The position numbers were made by a program. Below are positions 1 to 64,000 of a stretch of 64,000 nt of DNA, in pieces. Source of the stretch: Gemmatimonadota bacterium (GTDB lineage Bacteria; Gemmatimonadota; Gemmatimonadetes; Gemmatimonadales; GWC2-71-9); NCBI GenBank assembly GCA_036679605.1, contig JAZDCZ010000407.1, forward strand, positions 91,417 to 155,416. The letters are read 5' to 3'. Numbering within the stretch: the stretch's first letter is position 1; each line of letters begins with the position of its first letter.

Positions 1-3000
1 TGGCTCATGGTGACGCCCTGACATTTGACGGGTCGTCCATACAGGGATTCAGCGAACTGGGCGAATCTGATTTACGGTTAGAGTTGGATTGGCCCGCTTT
101 CTATAGGCTGCCTGCGAGCGTGTTTAGGGCTGGCAAGGCGCTTGTGTTCGCCATTGTCCGCAACAGGGACGGATCGCCGTACCCAATGGATTTCAGAGGC
201 AGGCTCGCAGACATGGATTTGGACGGACGCACCGTGTCCGCAGCTATGGAAATAGAGGGGTTCTTGTTCGACGGTGTGAACGCCGAGCAAACGTACTCAG
301 GTGAGTTCTGGCCGTCGTCCTCCAAAGGTTACTGCCATTCGCTCCCCGGGGATTTGTTGCGTCAGTTCATGGATCGCGCGGCCGAGACGCATAGGGCGCT
401 AGGTTTCGAGAACGAGAAGGATCATCCGGAAGTGGCTCCGGCGCAGTTTGAGATGAACTGGTCGCACACTGAGATGGCGATCGCTGCGGATCAAGTGCAG
501 CTTTATAAGCTCGTGTGCCGGCAGGTGGCTAGCCAAATGGGGTGTACAGCGTGCTTCCTGCCCAAGCCAATCGCCGGGGTGAATGGGAGCGGAATGCACA
601 CTAATCTGTCCGTCTCGGACTTGGGTGGAGAGAATCTTTTTCACGATCCATCGGCGGATGACGGACTGAGTGCGCTAGCTGTCTCGTTCGCCGATGGTAT
701 CTTAGCCCGCGCCAATGATATATGTCTGATCCTGAATCCCAGTGTGAACGCGTATAGGCGACTTGATCCGAACTATGAGGCGTCGAATCAGATAAGACGA
801 TCGTCCATCGATCGTGGGGCGATGATACGGGTACCCCTAGCTGAGCCGTCATCGGCTCGCATAGAAGTCAGATCCGTATCACCCGACGCGAACCCGTACA
901 TGCTGCTGTATGCGCTGGTCGGCTGCGGCATTTCGGGAAGCATGCCCCTCCGCGAAGGTAAAATTCTCCATGCCGACATACACTCGGCCATGGATGGATT
1001 CTCGGCGGATGACATTATAGGTGTCGATGAGGCGGCCAAATATGTCGCCCTCAAGAGGGCGACAGCCAGTCGCAGCCCGATGAAATTAGGATCGCGGGTG
1101 AAGGTGTCTGAGGTAATCTTCCACCACGAAGTTACCAATCAGTCCCTGTGGAGCGATTTCTGATCGAGGAACGCCCTCTAACACTCATATGCGGCATTGC
1201 ATATTGTCTTTCCTCGTGCGGTGTTTCGGAGGATTGTATATGGTGCATCCGTGGCATGACGCTGATTGGTGGGATATGTACACCCCAGAGCTGGATAAGG
1301 ATCGTACGCGATACGACCGTGCCATCATTGCTATGGCTGGCCTAGCCGATCGTCTGCACACTGCGATCCTTTCCTGCCAGTATACGGATATCAACGGAAT
1401 AATGGACGAATTCTTGCGGGTGCAGGACGAATATGCTGACCTCGGCGCGGCCGACAGTGAGTCGTCTATGGCAATGGCTAAGGTCGTGGAGGAGTCGAAT
1501 CCATCGCTTGACGAGATAGCAGGGAAGGTGCGGTGGTGGGGCATCGTGGACAGGATTGCTAGCGCACTCAAGACCAGCTCGCCATCCATAGACGCTTACC
1601 ACGGAACAGTGTGGAACCTGTTGACAGGTGATTGGTTTGAGAAGTTGGATCCGTTGGAGGCGTGCAGGGCATTGGAATTCAGCGAGGACATGTACACCGC
1701 CCGTGGGCGGTGTTTGGACGCCAGAGATTTCGACAAAGGCGAGGTCGAGGTGGTGTTCCGTGCGAAAATAGAACTAGGCCGCGCTGAGAGGCATGGCGAT
1801 GAGATATGGGTCCTTCGTCCCGACGCGGTATCTGAGACGCAGGCTAGGGCAATCGTTGGTGATGACCAATGGACGGGTTGGATGGATCCGGCCGACCTTT
1901 GGTGCTATCTGCTGAAGCTTAATGGGCTGTTGCCCCAAGGCGACGAGATCGCGATCATTCTGCTGGCAGCCGCAGATAGACTGGGGGATGGGCATGCGAA
2001 TCTTCATACTTGAGGATAACAGCCGGCGCGTCGTGAAGTTCAGGCGGGAACTCATCGGCAACATTGTGGATCACGCCGAGACATTGGATGTCGGTCGCAA
2101 GATGATACACGAGAACGAGTATGATCTTATTTTTTTAGATCATGATTTGGGCGGCAAGGAGATGGTCGATTCTGTGGATGAGGACACAGGCTACCACCTC
2201 GCTCTCTTCATAGCCGATGATGACGCAAACAGAGATACGCTGTGCGTCGTCCATTCATGCAACCCAGCCGGAGCTGATAATATCGTTACCATCCTTCCGC
2301 ACGCTGTTAAAGTACCGTTTCCCTCTCTGGATATCGCTGCAGCCGTCCGCTGGGCGGAGGGGAGCGGAAGTGAGTAACGGAAAGCCGGACGGACAACAGC
2401 CTCCACGGATGCCGGCTTTCCGATTCCCAATGTTCCTTTTGCTGATAGTAGGTTTGGCCTTCCTGCTGTCTGGATTACGGCAACCCATAGATGTCAGAGT
2501 GGATATTAATGAGTTTCGCAGCATGGTGGACAGCGGCACTATCTCGGCGATGACTATATCCGGTAACTCCATATCTGGGGAGAGGACGGACGGCTCCCGC
2601 TTCGCGTTGGACTACCCTGTCGGAGCCATTGACTCGGATTTCGTGAAGGAACTCCATGAGAGGGTACCAGACGCTGTCATCATTGTGGAGAAGCCCAGCG
2701 TATGGGTGCAATTGATGGTGATGATGCTCCCATGGTTGCTGATATTCGCCGTCGTCTGGTTTATGTTCCTCCGTCCCGGCGCTAAGACTGGCGGCAGTGG
2801 TCTCATGGGCGGCTTCGGCCGGTCGCGGCATTCCACAATGACTGCGGAGGAGGACACAAATGTCACTTTCGACGATGTTGCTGGGATCGAGGAGGCAAAA
2901 GAGGAGGTCTCGGAGATCGTCGAGTTCCTGAAGTCCCCCAAACGATTCACTAGGTTGGGCGGGCGCGTGCCGCACGGTGTCCTATTAGTTGGTGCCCCTG

Positions 3001-63000: not shown

Positions 63001-64000
63001 CATCGGGCATACCGAATTATACCTCGTGAAGGCACAGATGTCAATCGCCTAGGTCAATCGCTTGTTTTCAGGTCCAGATTCGTCTATAATAAGCATATGG
63101 TCAATTACCACCGGCACAAGGCTGGTGGTTTGCAGCTAGGCTGAGAGCCTGCCGCATCGTAATGCTGGAAATGTCACACGCTATCGGCGTGTAACAAGTC
63201 CTGCATTTCGGCTGATTGACAGCAACCTGCCCACCGGGCGCTTTGCGGCGCGAGGTGGGAGAGCAGGGAACTGACGCATGGAGCTTGGCATCAGCCTCAT
63301 GCACAAAAAGGATGTTCTTGGCGGCATTAGTGTCAGAATGACAGCAAACACCACACATCCTGCAAAGGAACCTAGAACCCTGCCTGTTCCTAGATTCCGT
63401 GTGTCCGCACTTGAAGCAGCGCTGGCTGGTATACGCAGGGGGGACGGTTACGACCGTCTTTCCCAGCGCCATGGCTTTGTAGGTCAGACAGAAGAGAAAG
63501 ACATGGAACGGCCAACTACTGATTTCGCGGTTGAGCCGTCTGCCCCTTCTCTTGTTCCTGATCCCGTGCAAATCCTCAAGCGCGAACACGCTTACCCCAG
63601 ATGTGTCCGCAATGCTTCTACTGACCACATGACACACATCGCGGCTGCCCGTGATTTTGGGAGGGGCTTCCATCTCGTAGTTGAGGTTGAGCCTGAATCC
63701 GCCGCGCCTGTCGTATTTCAGCGTGGCGGCTTTGCATCTCCAATTTTGGACAACTTTCTGGAAGTGTTCAGGGATACGCAGAACCAGCGTGTCGTCGGGC
63801 TGGCTGAAGCCTCTTGCATCACAATCGAGCATAATCCTGAAGCGCCTGCCGATGCAAGAGAGGGTCAGAAGGTTGCCCCGCACGGAGAGGGTGCGAAGAT
63901 TATACCTGACACTGAGGGTGTTCTTTCTGGGCGTCTTCCATTCACCATTGCTACCCTTGTTGCATCTTTTGGATGCCTCAAGGGCGCAATCCCTCGTCGT

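Follow-up and report, generated by a model that had tools for sequence, protein, structure and literature searches.

Huge phages with genomes above 200 kb are reported, in the part of the literature considered here, to carry tRNAs, IF3, S21 and tRNA-repair genes (Al-Shayeb et al., 2020; PMC7162821). In the sections of the paper used here, changes in the anticodon loop were proposed to let phage tRNAs evade the anticodon nucleases of their hosts (van den Berg et al., 2023; PMC10264068). In T4, Pnkp and Rnl1 are described, in the portion of the source drawn upon, as a tRNA repair system acting against PrrC (PMC2610378). GenBank records of published phages of 484-735 kb also contain DnaK. As for small RNAs, the biology of bacterial Ro60 (Rsr) with Y RNA was reportedly treated by Chen and colleagues in 2014. 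Here, we compare with these systems a 64,000-nt stretch of DNA (the window) from the 155-kb contig C343 of a Gemmatimonadota bin. Position 91,417 of C343 is window position 1; coordinates are those of the window unless preceded by C343.

The gene sets searched comprised 65 ORFs of the window and 89 upstream ORFs, that is 154 ORFs on C343. A Pfam family was found at E≤1e-3 for 25 of the 65 window ORFs. As the genome-wide survey's note had stated, the composition of C343 is unlike that of its bin: in a tetranucleotide projection, the contig scores 3.6±0.4 vs. -0.1±0.63 for the rest of the bin. Every 8-10 kb chunk of it is a compositional outlier, with no host-like flank in 155 kb, and the cumulative GC skew climbs monotonically, in one direction, across all 155 kb. 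At the contig end, a TnpB fragment (63101..64000, - strand; Pfam Cas12f1-like_TNB) lies in a dispersed repeat, copies of which (82-96%) are found at five other C343 sites; the dispersed repeats of C343 are absent from all other bin contigs. Together with extra tRNAs and metagenome relatives (see below), the signature, the confined repeats and the one-way skew support the survey's view of a large element foreign to the host chromosome. As an alternative, C343 could be a prophage integrated into the bin's own Gemmatimonadota chromosome, or a genomic island there. The joint binning and a tyrosine integrase gene (C343 87955-88794; Pfam) would fit such an origin, but the missing host-like flank, the one-directional skew, the absence of the element's 412-aa protein from the related genomes (0/60) and gene affinities to another phylum make it highly improbable. 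We give about even credence to reading C343 as a piece of a huge, extrachromosomal element of phage-like type, the likeliest candidate being a tailed huge phage of several hundred kb. A large replicon is proposed because the skew is monotonic over 155 kb, because homologues occur on contigs of 576-654 kb and because 185,579 GTDB species genomes yielded no relative.

The extra tRNAs are numerous. ARAGORN finds 15 of them in the window, in three clusters, and Rfam adds a sixteenth match at 57756-57825 (- strand). Counting 15 plus one broken in the window, and 24 plus one broken on the whole of C343, the large clustered tRNA set of the survey is recovered. The first cluster (23860..24403, + strand; ARAGORN, Rfam, Infernal) comprises Glu(CUC), Ala(GGC), Ala(CGC), Gln(UUG) and a disputed tRNA. 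The second (40285..40971, + strand; ARAGORN) comprises Leu(UAA), Trp, Leu(UAG), Tyr, Pro(CGG) and Pro(UGG), and the third (57676..58168, - strand; ARAGORN, Rfam) Arg(CCU), the broken Arg(CCG)-like copy at 57756-57825, Arg(UCU), Lys(UUU) and Lys(CUU). The set has duplicated anticodons, and its members are 68-79% identical to the best bin tRNAs. Elsewhere, the bin has a full tRNA set, with 71 tRNAs and a genuine 97-nt tRNA-Sec. To our knowledge, U33 is near-universal in tRNAs. In the window, C33 replaces it in 5 of 16 tRNAs, both Pro tRNAs of the second cluster being affected; five to six tRNAs of C343 have no U33, among them those for Pro and Glu (both species of each). In IMG/VR, the tRNA-Glu loop has C33 in 14 contigs vs. 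U33 in at least 118.

The disputed 71-nt tRNA (24333..24403, + strand) is labeled SeC(UCA) by ARAGORN, and had been presented as a UCA suppressor on a tRNA-Glu-like body. The tRNA itself is real, but its reading as UCA hinges on the register chosen by ARAGORN, one that calls for a stem of 4 bp, a C.A mismatch and a variable loop of 3 nt. In the Infernal alignment, the same molecule scores 62.3 bits with zero non-standard pairs; it has five G-C anticodon-stem pairs, a CCUUCAA loop with UUC at positions 34-36 and a 4-nt variable loop. This places it in register with the neighboring Glu(CUC) and with Glu(UUC) of the L185 locus, the aligned Glu tRNAs having CC[U/C]UCAA loops and an invariant AAAC variable loop. 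The Glu-type D arm, the 4-nt variable loop and the UUC anticodon are thus all present, position 33 being C instead of U, and an identical anticodon loop is found on tRNA-Glu of viral contigs. From its sequence, the molecule is most likely a tRNA-Glu(UUC) with C33. The recoding signal would then be false, a repetitive GC stem having allowed the tRNA finder to shift its anticodon call by a single base. Moreover, TGA read-through is not enriched: same-frame ORF pairs split by TGA number 14 vs. 14.5 expected from bin contigs, with 13 vs. 13.2 for TAG and 5 vs. 6.0 for TAA. An opal suppressor is not supported, given the covariance-model register (UUC) and the lack of a TGA excess.

Searches for hallmark genes, also at relaxed thresholds, agree with the survey's statement that no capsid, portal, terminase, replication or conjugation gene is recognizable. 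Among the 154 ORFs that the 155-kb fragment contains, Pfam and PHROGs revealed no gene for a capsid, portal, terminase, tail sheath, tail tube or DNA polymerase. Relaxed Pfam searches yielded no hallmark family for 64 unknown ORFs, and none of 74 unknown ORFs matched a head, packaging, connector or tail PHROG at E≤0.05, very few matching any PHROG. Phage_capsid has no match anywhere in the bin, the only Terminase_6N of which lies on C71, a contig of host composition. Rep, ParA/ParB, relaxase and T4SS families are likewise lacking in the 154 ORFs of the C343 fragment. The absent hallmark genes and the near absence of PHROG matches among unknown proteins count against a phage-like element.

Homology to recognized phages was found in a collagen-fibre module. 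Its first gene (7428..11162, + strand; Pfam Collagen 5.2e-49) encodes the 1244-aa collagen-repeat protein of the survey, here confirmed by Pfam and read as a fibre protein; its PHROG 'tail fiber' matches fall within the collagen repeats, and the gene is syntenic in loci L095-L099. The C-terminal domain of this protein resembles portions of the next one, a DUF7467 protein (11177..12196, + strand; Pfam DUF7467 1.7e-24), which has an N-terminal domain of about 46-78 aa in common with the following 284-aa protein (37-43% identity over residues 1-46/78, BLASTP). The latter (12206..13060, + strand) is 50-69% identical in L094-L100. Then come a conserved 342-aa protein with a C-terminal jelly-roll (13071..14099, + strand; homologues, AlphaFold2 model) and an 833-aa methyltransferase/GT9/GT2/TPR protein (14685..17186, + strand; Pfam), the most conserved gene of the module (64-77% identical in L094-L099). 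Eight metagenome contigs bear relatives of the module; one of these contigs is 576 kb long. The 342-aa protein has 19 full-length homologues (51-87% identity, all of 342-354 aa), and homologues of it lie on metagenome contigs of 576,334 and 654,058 bp. The AlphaFold2 model of this protein, the only unknown protein of the element that was folded, has a pLDDT of 64; a fold search (VIA-align 2) retrieved phage cement proteins and CBM32 as best matches (Z 8.3/8.0), the best viral-structure match having an E of 3.8e-10. The cement-protein-like fold counts for a phage-like element, while a match at this level, that of common beta-sandwiches, also counts against it. In the IMG/VR locus L102, major-head and tail genes have a 34% homologue (E 1e-39) of this protein immediately downstream, and a homologue of a C92 amidase comes after it. 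Tail or fibre homology to recognized phages is thus present, via this single distant link. The 342-aa protein probably belongs to the fibre or serves as decoration.

Close relatives of the fibre module do not occur in IMG/VR, where only the 34% homologue is found, and the 342-aa, 284-aa, SprT-like and TopoVI-B proteins are unmatched by tblastn among 50,697 GenBank phage records. Both observations count against the phage-like reading. A further alternative is a giant non-viral extrachromosomal element, megaplasmid-like or a new kind of replicon, that would spread without a capsid. It would suit the failure to find virion or packaging genes on C343, and the presence there of the tyrosine integrase, TnpB copies, methylases and a Flp pilin. 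Multi-enzyme 'polyvalent' proteins are said to occur on conjugative elements as well, as Iyer and colleagues reportedly described in 2017. Sequences resembling plasmids and exceeding 200 kb were reported beside huge phages, in the part of the study considered (PMC7162821). Nevertheless, Rep, ParA/ParB, relaxase and T4SS are all missing from the 154 ORFs of the fragment, the 342-aa and SprT-like proteins are unmatched in 72,556 plasmid records (PLSDB), the fibre-module homologue of L102 lies within a phage tail module, and viral contigs also bear tRNA arrays with C33 Glu loops. We therefore hold a non-viral element to be unlikely.

The phage-like element would also carry many genes of cellular type. 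At the window start, a glutamine synthetase-like gene (3..1163, + strand; full gene C343 91173-92579, its 5' end upstream of the window; Pfam Gln-synt_C 4.4e-66) reaches, with the partial protein as query, 229 bits vs. a cut-off of 429 for NCBIfam GlnA, and is 30% identical to the bin copy. It is followed by an FtsH AAA+ metalloprotease (2217..4268, + strand; Pfam M41 and AAA; NCBIfam FtsH_fam 707 bits vs. a cut-off of 600), 47% identical to the FtsH of the bin and 50-58% to its nearest named representatives, which are Planctomycetota. A divergent NusG-like transcription factor (5065..5679, + strand; Pfam NusG 1.8e-11 and KOW) scores 91 bits with NCBIfam nusG, under the cut-off of 136, and has 27% identity to the bin NusG. 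Upstream of the window are GDH, DnaK, DnaJ, IF3, SppA-like, RNase E/G and bS21 (C343 83731-83868) genes, as well as a DHS-like gene adjoining an AdoMetDC-like one. The cellular genes listed in the survey (DnaK, DnaJ, FtsH, SppA, RNase E/G, NusG, IF3, bS21, GDH, GlnA and the DHS-like/AdoMetDC-like pair) are thus all found, NusG, SppA and GlnA as '-like' proteins; the ATPase that it described as clamp-loader-like is present, but is identified as RuvB-like. NCBIfam equivalog cut-offs are passed by DnaK, FtsH, IF3, RNase HII, UPRT and TopoVI-B, and missed by NusG, RuvB, NDK, DnaJ, GDH, GlnA (partial query), DHS and Rsr. With many Planctomycetota/Phycisphaerae DnaK proteins, that of C343 shares 70-78% identity, vs. 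55% with that of the bin. Because both DnaK and FtsH of the element have their nearest counterparts in Planctomycetota and the bin is a Gemmatimonadota, the host link made in the survey is not upheld, and these sequence affinities suggest that the bin is probably not the true host.

Such affinities would also be expected if C343 were a mis-binned chromosome piece of an unbinned Planctomycetota-affiliated bacterium, maybe with an integrated element, and its 'own' genes simply housekeeping ones. The equivalog-level DnaK, FtsH, IF3, RNase HII and UPRT, the DnaK identity of 70-78%, as if chromosomal, and the scarcity of PHROG matches all point this way, the first two counting equally against a phage-like element. 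The same holds for the bin size (6.7 Mb vs. 3.7 Mb for a genus mate, contamination 6.3%), for secreted PKD, TSP3 and dockerin-like proteins encoded by C343 and for its giant gene. However, the bin has one L2 and one RpoB only, so that no second cell genome appears to be co-binned, and no companion contig with the C343 signature is found in it. Moreover, a density of 24 tRNAs per 155 kb is hard to reconcile with a chromosome, as are the duplicated anticodons and the broken copy, and five to six tRNAs without U33 would be extraordinary as a cell's sole copies. NusG, RuvB, NDK and DnaJ fall under equivalog cut-offs; these divergent copies, like GDH, were counted for a phage-like element. The four DNA methylases, Pnkp/Rnl1, the multi-enzyme giant protein and the absence of the 342-aa family from 185,579 GTDB species genomes also argue against a chromosome piece, which we consider rather unlikely.

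Several other genes bear on RNA and DNA metabolism. As the survey proposed, a Ro60 gene lies beside a Y-RNA-like gene, which Pfam TROVE and vWA and Rfam RF01656 confirm. The Ro60/Rsr orthologue (31334..32929, + strand; Pfam vWA_Ro60 9.7e-61, TROVE 3.5e-39; NCBIfam Rsr 520 bits, under the cut-off of 900) would start at the ATG at 31334, after AAGGAG, and has homologues (45-49%) in three IMG/VR contigs. The small RNA gene (31158..31310, + strand, ends predicted) is supported by an RF01656 match at 31161-31225 (41 bits vs. a gathering score of 38) and by its fold (z -2.35) into three hairpins: a Ro-binding-type stem-loop, a second hairpin and a terminator-like hairpin with a U7 run. In the IMG/VR locus L191, the same Ro-binding stem occurs upstream of rsr, with compensatory changes on both sides. 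The gene pair and the predicted Ro-binding stem would thus make up a Ro60-Y RNA module. The survey's T4 Rnl1-type RNA-repair enzyme is confirmed upstream of the window as a 753-aa fusion of kinase, phosphatase and Rnl1-type ligase, with scores under the equivalog cut-offs for bacterial Pnkp and T4 RnlA. Also upstream, a 3415-aa multi-enzyme protein with GNAT, PARP/ART, NTase, Tpt1-like and NUDIX domains adjoins the SprT-like protein. In the window, a LigT-like 2H phosphoesterase (38710..39462, + strand) matches Pfam 2_5_RNA_ligase2 (1e-8), LigT_PEase (1.6e-8) and, weakly, Acb1 (5.7e-4). The topoisomerase VI subunit B announced by the survey (34344..36062, + strand; Pfam Topo-VIb_trans 1.6e-53; NCBIfam 636 bits vs. 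a cut-off of 274) is an orphan: no TP6A or Toprim family was found on C343, flanking ORFs and relaxed Pfam included, whereas a 57% homologue in L184 has the A subunit alongside. Two C5 cytosine DNA methylases (46475-47707 and 49003-50250, - strand; Pfam DNA_methylase, about 4e-63 each) flank a 420-aa protein of no assigned function (+ strand, within 46475..50250). Dam is encoded upstream of the window. In all, four DNA methylase-like genes are recognized on C343 where five had been claimed. The window further contains a five-gene block (24541..29130, - strand; Pfam) encoding a 168-aa protein, an ABC-ATPase/MlaE fusion, 380-aa and 105-aa proteins and a Vps4-like AAA ATPase, as well as a NUDIX hydrolase followed by a 117-aa fragment like the NAD synthase C-terminus (29986..30939, + strand; Pfam, PHROGs). 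A sigma-like protein is also encoded by C343.

In support of the phage-like reading, we count the tail-module homologue in L102, Pnkp/Rnl1, the multi-enzyme giant protein, the C33 Glu loop in 14 IMG/VR contigs and DnaK in 484-735 kb phages, in addition to the cement-protein-like fold. The part in hand would then be an 'auxiliary' arm, the structural and replication core lying elsewhere. This arm would provide a supplementary decoding set (24 tRNAs and one broken, several with C33), translation and transcription factors (IF3, bS21, NusG-like, sigma-like), proteostasis genes (DnaK, DnaJ, FtsH, SppA-like) and an RNA-damage toolkit (Pnkp/Rnl1, 2H phosphoesterase, Ro60 with the Y-like RNA, RNase E/G), next to DNA methylases and the 3415-aa protein. 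The glycosylated collagen-fibre module may serve the particle surface or adsorption. During infection, the element's tRNAs and repair enzymes would sustain translation while host tRNAs are attacked or depleted; the host, judging from the cell-derived genes, may be a planctomycete rather than the Gemmatimonadota of the bin. More speculatively, and with considerable doubt, C343 could represent an undescribed clade of giant phage-like elements (with the 576-654 kb relatives) in Planctomycetota or another high-GC phylum, having virion and replication genes beyond current profiles; C33, put systematically in place of U33 in Glu, Pro and Ala tRNAs, would be an armour against nucleases cutting after an anticodon-loop uridine, along with Pnkp/Rnl1, the 2H phosphoesterase and Ro60-Y RNA.

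If C343 does derive from a huge phage, this group would come to include a host phylum from which hardly any viruses are known, and the family would be comparable in size to the largest genomes of phages. The cluster of C33 tRNAs gives a concrete starting point for testing how mobile elements shield the tRNAs that they carry. The suppressor correction is of practical value, a one-base anticodon slide by a tRNA finder being able to mimic recoding. Finally, the conflict between bin membership and gene affinities shows that, for elements of this type, it is not safe to assign a host from binning alone.

Compared with the huge phages, as far as the part of the report considered goes (PMC7162821), C343 has in common host-unlike tRNAs in number, IF3, S21, tRNA repair and a replicon-scale GC skew. 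However, it has no terminase or major capsid gene by which to place it in a clade, and four of its own proteins are without a tblastn match in GenBank phage records. It is also set apart by its orphan TopoVI-B, its glycosylated collagen-fibre module and its Planctomycetota affinities. Recoded phages with suppressor tRNAs resemble it through ARAGORN's UCA label on one tRNA; in C343, the covariance-model register gives UUC, in-frame TGA is not in excess, and TGA is the commonest stop of the element, according to an earlier annotation count. With the Ro60-Y RNA systems of bacteria and phages (YrlA, RF02553), C343 shares a TROVE and vWA protein adjoining a small structured RNA, but this RNA, a compact local hairpin, matches the Ro-binding stem model (RF01656) only, and a YrlA tRNA-like domain was not detected in the window. 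On phage contigs, Ro60 is paired with a small RNA as on C343. As in the phage tRNA study (PMC10264068), a tRNA array with host-unlike loops is accompanied by T4-type repair (Pnkp/Rnl1); the change seen here is U33 to C33 in five tRNAs, 'U33' not being mentioned in the part of that paper considered. Finally, C343 has the same kinase, phosphatase and Rnl1-type ligase domains as T4 Pnkp and Rnl1, but differs in that all three are joined in one 753-aa fusion, with scores under cut-offs.

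Contig C343 (155,416 bp, 55.6% GC) is foreign to the Gemmatimonadota bin in which it was placed (6.72 Mb, 434 contigs, 58.2% GC), on four counts: tetranucleotides, tRNA set, private repeats and GC skew. Every 8-10 kb chunk of the contig is a tetranucleotide outlier (projection 3.6 ± 0.4 versus -0.1 ± 0.63 in the rest of the bin). The other contigs of the bin carry 71 tRNAs that cover all amino acids, including a genuine 97-nt tRNA-Sec, and C343 adds 24 further tRNAs whose best counterparts in the bin are only 68-79% identical. Dispersed repeats of 80-96% identity, partly derived from TnpB, are found at several sites of C343 (window 63100-64000, 33396-33576 and 36064-36146; contig positions 1-115, 40883-44239, 65451-67618 and 78841-78936) and on no other contig of the bin. 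Both ends of C343 stop inside copies of these repeats, which accounts for the assembly breaks; the contig has no terminal repeat. Finally, the cumulative GC skew rises without a turn across all 155 kb, implying either a replicon far longer than the contig or unidirectional replication. That C343 would be an island of the bin's own chromosome is very improbable. Three contigs of 8.8-9.6 kb (C429, C136 and C262) share the tetranucleotide signature and may be part of the same element; the only products they encode are very large proteins (Ig-like, dockerin or IPTL-CTERM) and part of a resolvase. In a sequencing run that is probably the source sample, the words of C343 reach a depth of about 12x, in fragmented pieces.

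This raises the question of whose element it is. The host link to the Gemmatimonadota bin, put forward in the genome-wide survey's note, is weakened by the nearest named relatives of two proteins. The DnaK of the bin is 80-83% identical to those of Gemmatimonadales MAGs, and that of the element shares 55% identity with the bin's own and 70-78% with many other DnaK sequences, of which every named one is from Planctomycetota or Phycisphaerae. Similarly, those named among the best FtsH representatives are Planctomycetota (Engelhardtia mirabilis, 58%; a 'Planctomycetes bacterium' cluster, 50%), and the 152 FtsH matches in IMG/VR are uninformative, since all of them are 44-54% identical. A search of the literature found no paper on a jumbo phage in Gemmatimonadota. 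The bin is large (6.7 Mb versus 3.7 Mb for its genus mate) and 6.3% contaminated; it has a single L2 and a single RpoB, so that C343 is a lone foreign contig rather than part of a co-binned second genome. These affinities also bring in a mundane explanation, namely that C343 is a mis-binned piece of a chromosome related to Planctomycetota. DnaK, FtsH, IF3, RNase HII and UPRT indeed pass the NCBIfam equivalog cut-offs, as the genes of a cell would, whereas NusG, RuvB, NDK, DnaJ and GDH fall under them. On the whole, we regard a mis-binned chromosomal piece as possible, though doubtful.

The gene content was reassessed using our own crude gene call, supplemented with ORFs from the gaps (65 ORFs in the window, which is C343 91417-155416, and 89 upstream, compared with Pfam and PHROGs). 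A Pfam family was assigned at E<=1e-3 to 25 of the former and 46 of the latter, and the inventory reported earlier is borne out. The window encodes a GlnA-like protein, FtsH, a NusG-like protein, a 1244-aa collagen protein, glycosyltransferases, an ABC/MlaE fusion, a Vps4-like AAA ATPase, NUDIX, Ro60, TopoVI-B, a 2H phosphoesterase, DUF3326, two C5 methylases, a PKD-metalloprotease and, at its extreme end, a TnpB fragment. Upstream are found GDH, Flp pilin, sugar-nucleotide enzymes, a RuvB-like ATPase, RNase HII, an NDK-like protein, IF3, TnpB, DnaK, a DHS-like gene adjoining an AdoMetDC-like one, UPRT, dCMP deaminase, a two-domain S49 (SppA-like) protein, Pnkp/Rnl1, RNase E/G, bS21, DnaJ, Dam and a tyrosine integrase, as well as a SprT-like protein of 745 aa, after which comes one of 3415 aa that combines GNAT, PARP/ART, nucleotidyltransferase, Tpt1-like and NUDIX domains. 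Two details need correction: DNA methylases are present, but four methylase-like genes were recognised instead of five, and the upstream 'clamp loader' is an ATPase recognised here as RuvB-like. The methylases, Pnkp/Rnl1 and the multi-enzyme giant protein all argue against a mis-binned chromosome.

The lack of phage hallmark genes on C343, already remarked upon in the survey's note, persists at relaxed thresholds. No hint of capsid, portal, terminase, tail, Rep, Par or relaxase genes was obtained with Pfam at E<=0.5 (64 unknown ORFs) or with PHROGs at E<=0.05 (74 unknown ORFs). PHROG matches of any kind are almost absent among the unknown proteins of the contig, a point in favour of a chromosomal origin. 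Two PHROG matches were discarded as virion genes: that to 'head maturation protease' falls on the two-domain S49 protein, and those to 'tail fiber' correspond to collagen repeats. Elsewhere in the bin, Phage_capsid has no match, and Terminase_6N is matched only on C71, a 40-kb contig of host composition (5697-6401, in a 531-aa frame), which probably carries an ordinary prophage of the bin, unrelated to C343. Overall, we put at about even the chances that C343 is part of a huge phage-like element, with the core genes located beyond the contig. A giant element of non-viral nature is unlikely.

Some genes of the window deserve separate mention. TopoVI-B (34344-36062) is bona fide (636 bits versus a cut-off of 274), and no TopoVI-A is found anywhere on the 155-kb contig. 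The ORFs upstream of it encode a secreted protein with GSRYN repeats and a P-loop ATPase. A TopoVI-B homologue in an IMG/VR locus (L184) adjoins a serine recombinase and a TopoVI-A and probably is host DNA beside a prophage. The 2H phosphoesterase (38710-39462) gives a weak match to the anti-CBASS protein Acb1, and at 29986-30939 a NUDIX gene adjoins a 117-aa piece corresponding to the C-terminus of NAD synthase; a role in counter-defence is possible for both.

The 71-nt tRNA at 24333-24403 had been described as an opal suppressor, a claim that we reject. ARAGORN does return SeC(UCA); however, its drawing works only with an anticodon stem of 4 bp, a C.A mismatch, a 2-nt spacer from the D arm to the anticodon arm and a variable loop of 3 nt. 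With the Rfam tRNA covariance model (62.3 bits), the stem has five G-C pairs and no non-standard pair, the 7-nt loop is CCUUCAA, the variable loop has 4 nt and the anticodon is UUC, for glutamate codons, with C33. This register is supported by three observations. The anticodon stem is a GC repeat able to slip by one base. The adjacent tRNA-Glu(CUC) has the loop CCCUCAA and an identical variable loop. Finally, the loop CCTTCAA is found on tRNA-Glu(UUC) in two IMG/VR contigs (L185 and L186), for which ARAGORN itself says Glu, and all three tRNAs align in register. Apart from the 71-nt tRNA, the element would be without Glu(UUC), and isoacceptor pairs are present for Lys, Arg, Pro, Thr and Gly. 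Moreover, the counts of same-frame ORF pairs interrupted by one stop codon are 14 for TGA, 13 for TAG and 5 for TAA on C343, versus 14.5, 13.2 and 6.0 expected from the contigs of the bin. Very probably, C343 thus has neither a suppressor nor recoding. Four pairs of adjacent same-frame ORFs with a single TAG between the two members lie at window 11105-13060, 14676-17999, 33176-34441 and 34335-36731; no amber suppressor tRNA was found on C343.

Position 33 of the element tRNAs is unusual. Five of the 16 tRNAs in the window have C33 (Glu CUC, Glu UUC, Ala GGC, Pro CGG and Pro UGG; 23860-24403 and 40821-40971), a count that follows from taking the 71-nt tRNA in its UUC register; each was confirmed singly by Infernal alignment. 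In the bin, U33 is found in 68/71 tRNAs, the three exceptions being doubtful-looking predictions of 88-90 nt. The difference between C343 and the bin in tRNAs without U33 gives p=0.023 (Fisher; 5/24 versus 3/71), or p=0.007 if 6/24 are counted. Among IMG/VR loci fetched for other reasons (1.2 Mb), 64 of 66 tRNAs have U33, and the exceptions are the Glu tRNAs of L185 and L186. In a pattern scan of IMG/VR, 14 contigs, most of them 39-322 kb long, showed the Glu(UUC) arm with C33, and at least 118 showed the U33 form. The C33 pattern was absent from 200 other genomes of the bin's phylum, a control that says little because the pattern is so narrow that its U33 form appeared in only 2/40. One study proposes that altered anticodon loops let phage tRNAs escape host anticodon nucleases (PMC10264068), and a preprint describes Cas13b6 as cutting after uridines of anticodon loops, including around U33 (PMC13692257). 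C33 might protect these element tRNAs.

As the only copies of a cell, C33 tRNAs would be extraordinary, and the tRNA array, with its duplicates and a broken copy, likewise speaks against a mis-binned chromosome. The broken copy is the sixteenth tRNA of the window (57756-57825, minus strand), Arg(CCG)-like, whose acceptor stem is disrupted by a 4-nt deletion in the 3' strand. Flanked by Arg(CCU) and Arg(UCU), it is detected by Rfam but missed by ARAGORN. Of the six codons with the strongest enrichment on C343, five are matched by a cognate tRNA of the element; the overall test of codon compensation gives p=0.11, the comparison being with a bin that may not be the host.

The Y-RNA-like gene reported next to Ro60 holds up. 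A match to RF01656 above the gathering score covers 31161-31225, and the fold of 31155-31312 consists of a Ro-type stem-loop, another hairpin and, last, a GC hairpin trailed by U7; a simple scan flagged neither promoter nor terminator. For Ro60, ATG 31334, after AAGGAG, is the most likely start codon. Homologues of Ro60 (45-49% identity) are found on three IMG/VR contigs. In one of them (L191), a matching stem immediately precedes rsr (RF01656, 34 bits); several changes affect both of its sides yet preserve pairing, and sub-threshold YrlA-like matches adjoin rsr in L189 and L191. Judged from sequence, a Y-like RNA beside Ro60 is credible.

Relatives of the element were traced through the fibre module (window 7428-17186). 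Its 342-aa protein (13071-14099) has 19 full-length homologues of 342-354 aa (51-87% identity), one of them on a 654,058-bp contig. In all eight metagenome loci with this gene, the order is collagen, DUF7467, 284 aa, 342 aa, 186 aa (opposite strand) and 833-aa glycosyltransferase. Identities range from about 40% (186-aa gene) to 77%, with 50-77% for the 284-aa, 342-aa and 833-aa genes, and the GC content of the relatives is 63-70%. One locus (L098; 21 kb of a 576,334-bp contig, 70% GC) encodes GroEL and a helicase next to the module, as well as dNMP and thymidylate kinases, indicating that a chaperonin of their own is found in relatives too. On other contigs of the bin, ORFs taken from the flanks of the relatives have no match except for generic GroEL. 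The DUF7467 and 284-aa proteins have an N-terminal domain in common, and the C-terminal domain of the collagen protein resembles parts of the DUF7467 protein; such sharing would be expected of a fibre set anchored at a common site. In the AlphaFold2 model of the 342-aa protein (pLDDT 64), the C-terminal half is a jelly-roll. The best hit among viral structures (BFVD) is nameless (E 3.8e-10), Foldseek finds nothing in the PDB at E<=1e-3, and the ESM Atlas yields nothing beyond weakly similar viral hypothetical proteins (score 0.91, low recognition). With VIA-align 2, phage cement proteins and CBM32 modules come out best among solved structures, with Z about 8, which is no better than a common fold.

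The sole link to a recognised phage is an IMG/VR locus (L102, 35% GC) with a 34% homologue of the 342-aa protein, which lies behind genes for a major head protein (phrog_2522) and a tail protein and ahead of a homologue of the C92 amidase of C343. The 342-aa family was not found in 185,579 GTDB species genomes. GenBank phages have no match for the 342-aa, 284-aa, SprT-like or TopoVI-B proteins, and PLSDB plasmids none for the 342-aa and SprT-like ones. RNase E/G matches in GenBank phages were set aside, being mostly bacterial DNA filed as phage. A second element-specific protein, of 297 aa (22794-23687), has relatives of 77-85%, all on small contigs, and the 412-aa protein (59277-60515) has none in IMG/VR or in 60 related genomes.

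Most single gene classes of C343 are already known from huge phages (PMC7162821), and the pairing of Ro60 with a Y-like RNA is not new either, being known from phage contigs. What is new is the element family itself, with relatives of up to about 0.6 Mb, together with its orphan TopoVI-B, unmatched in GenBank phages, the conflict between bin membership and gene affinities, and the enrichment in C33 tRNAs.
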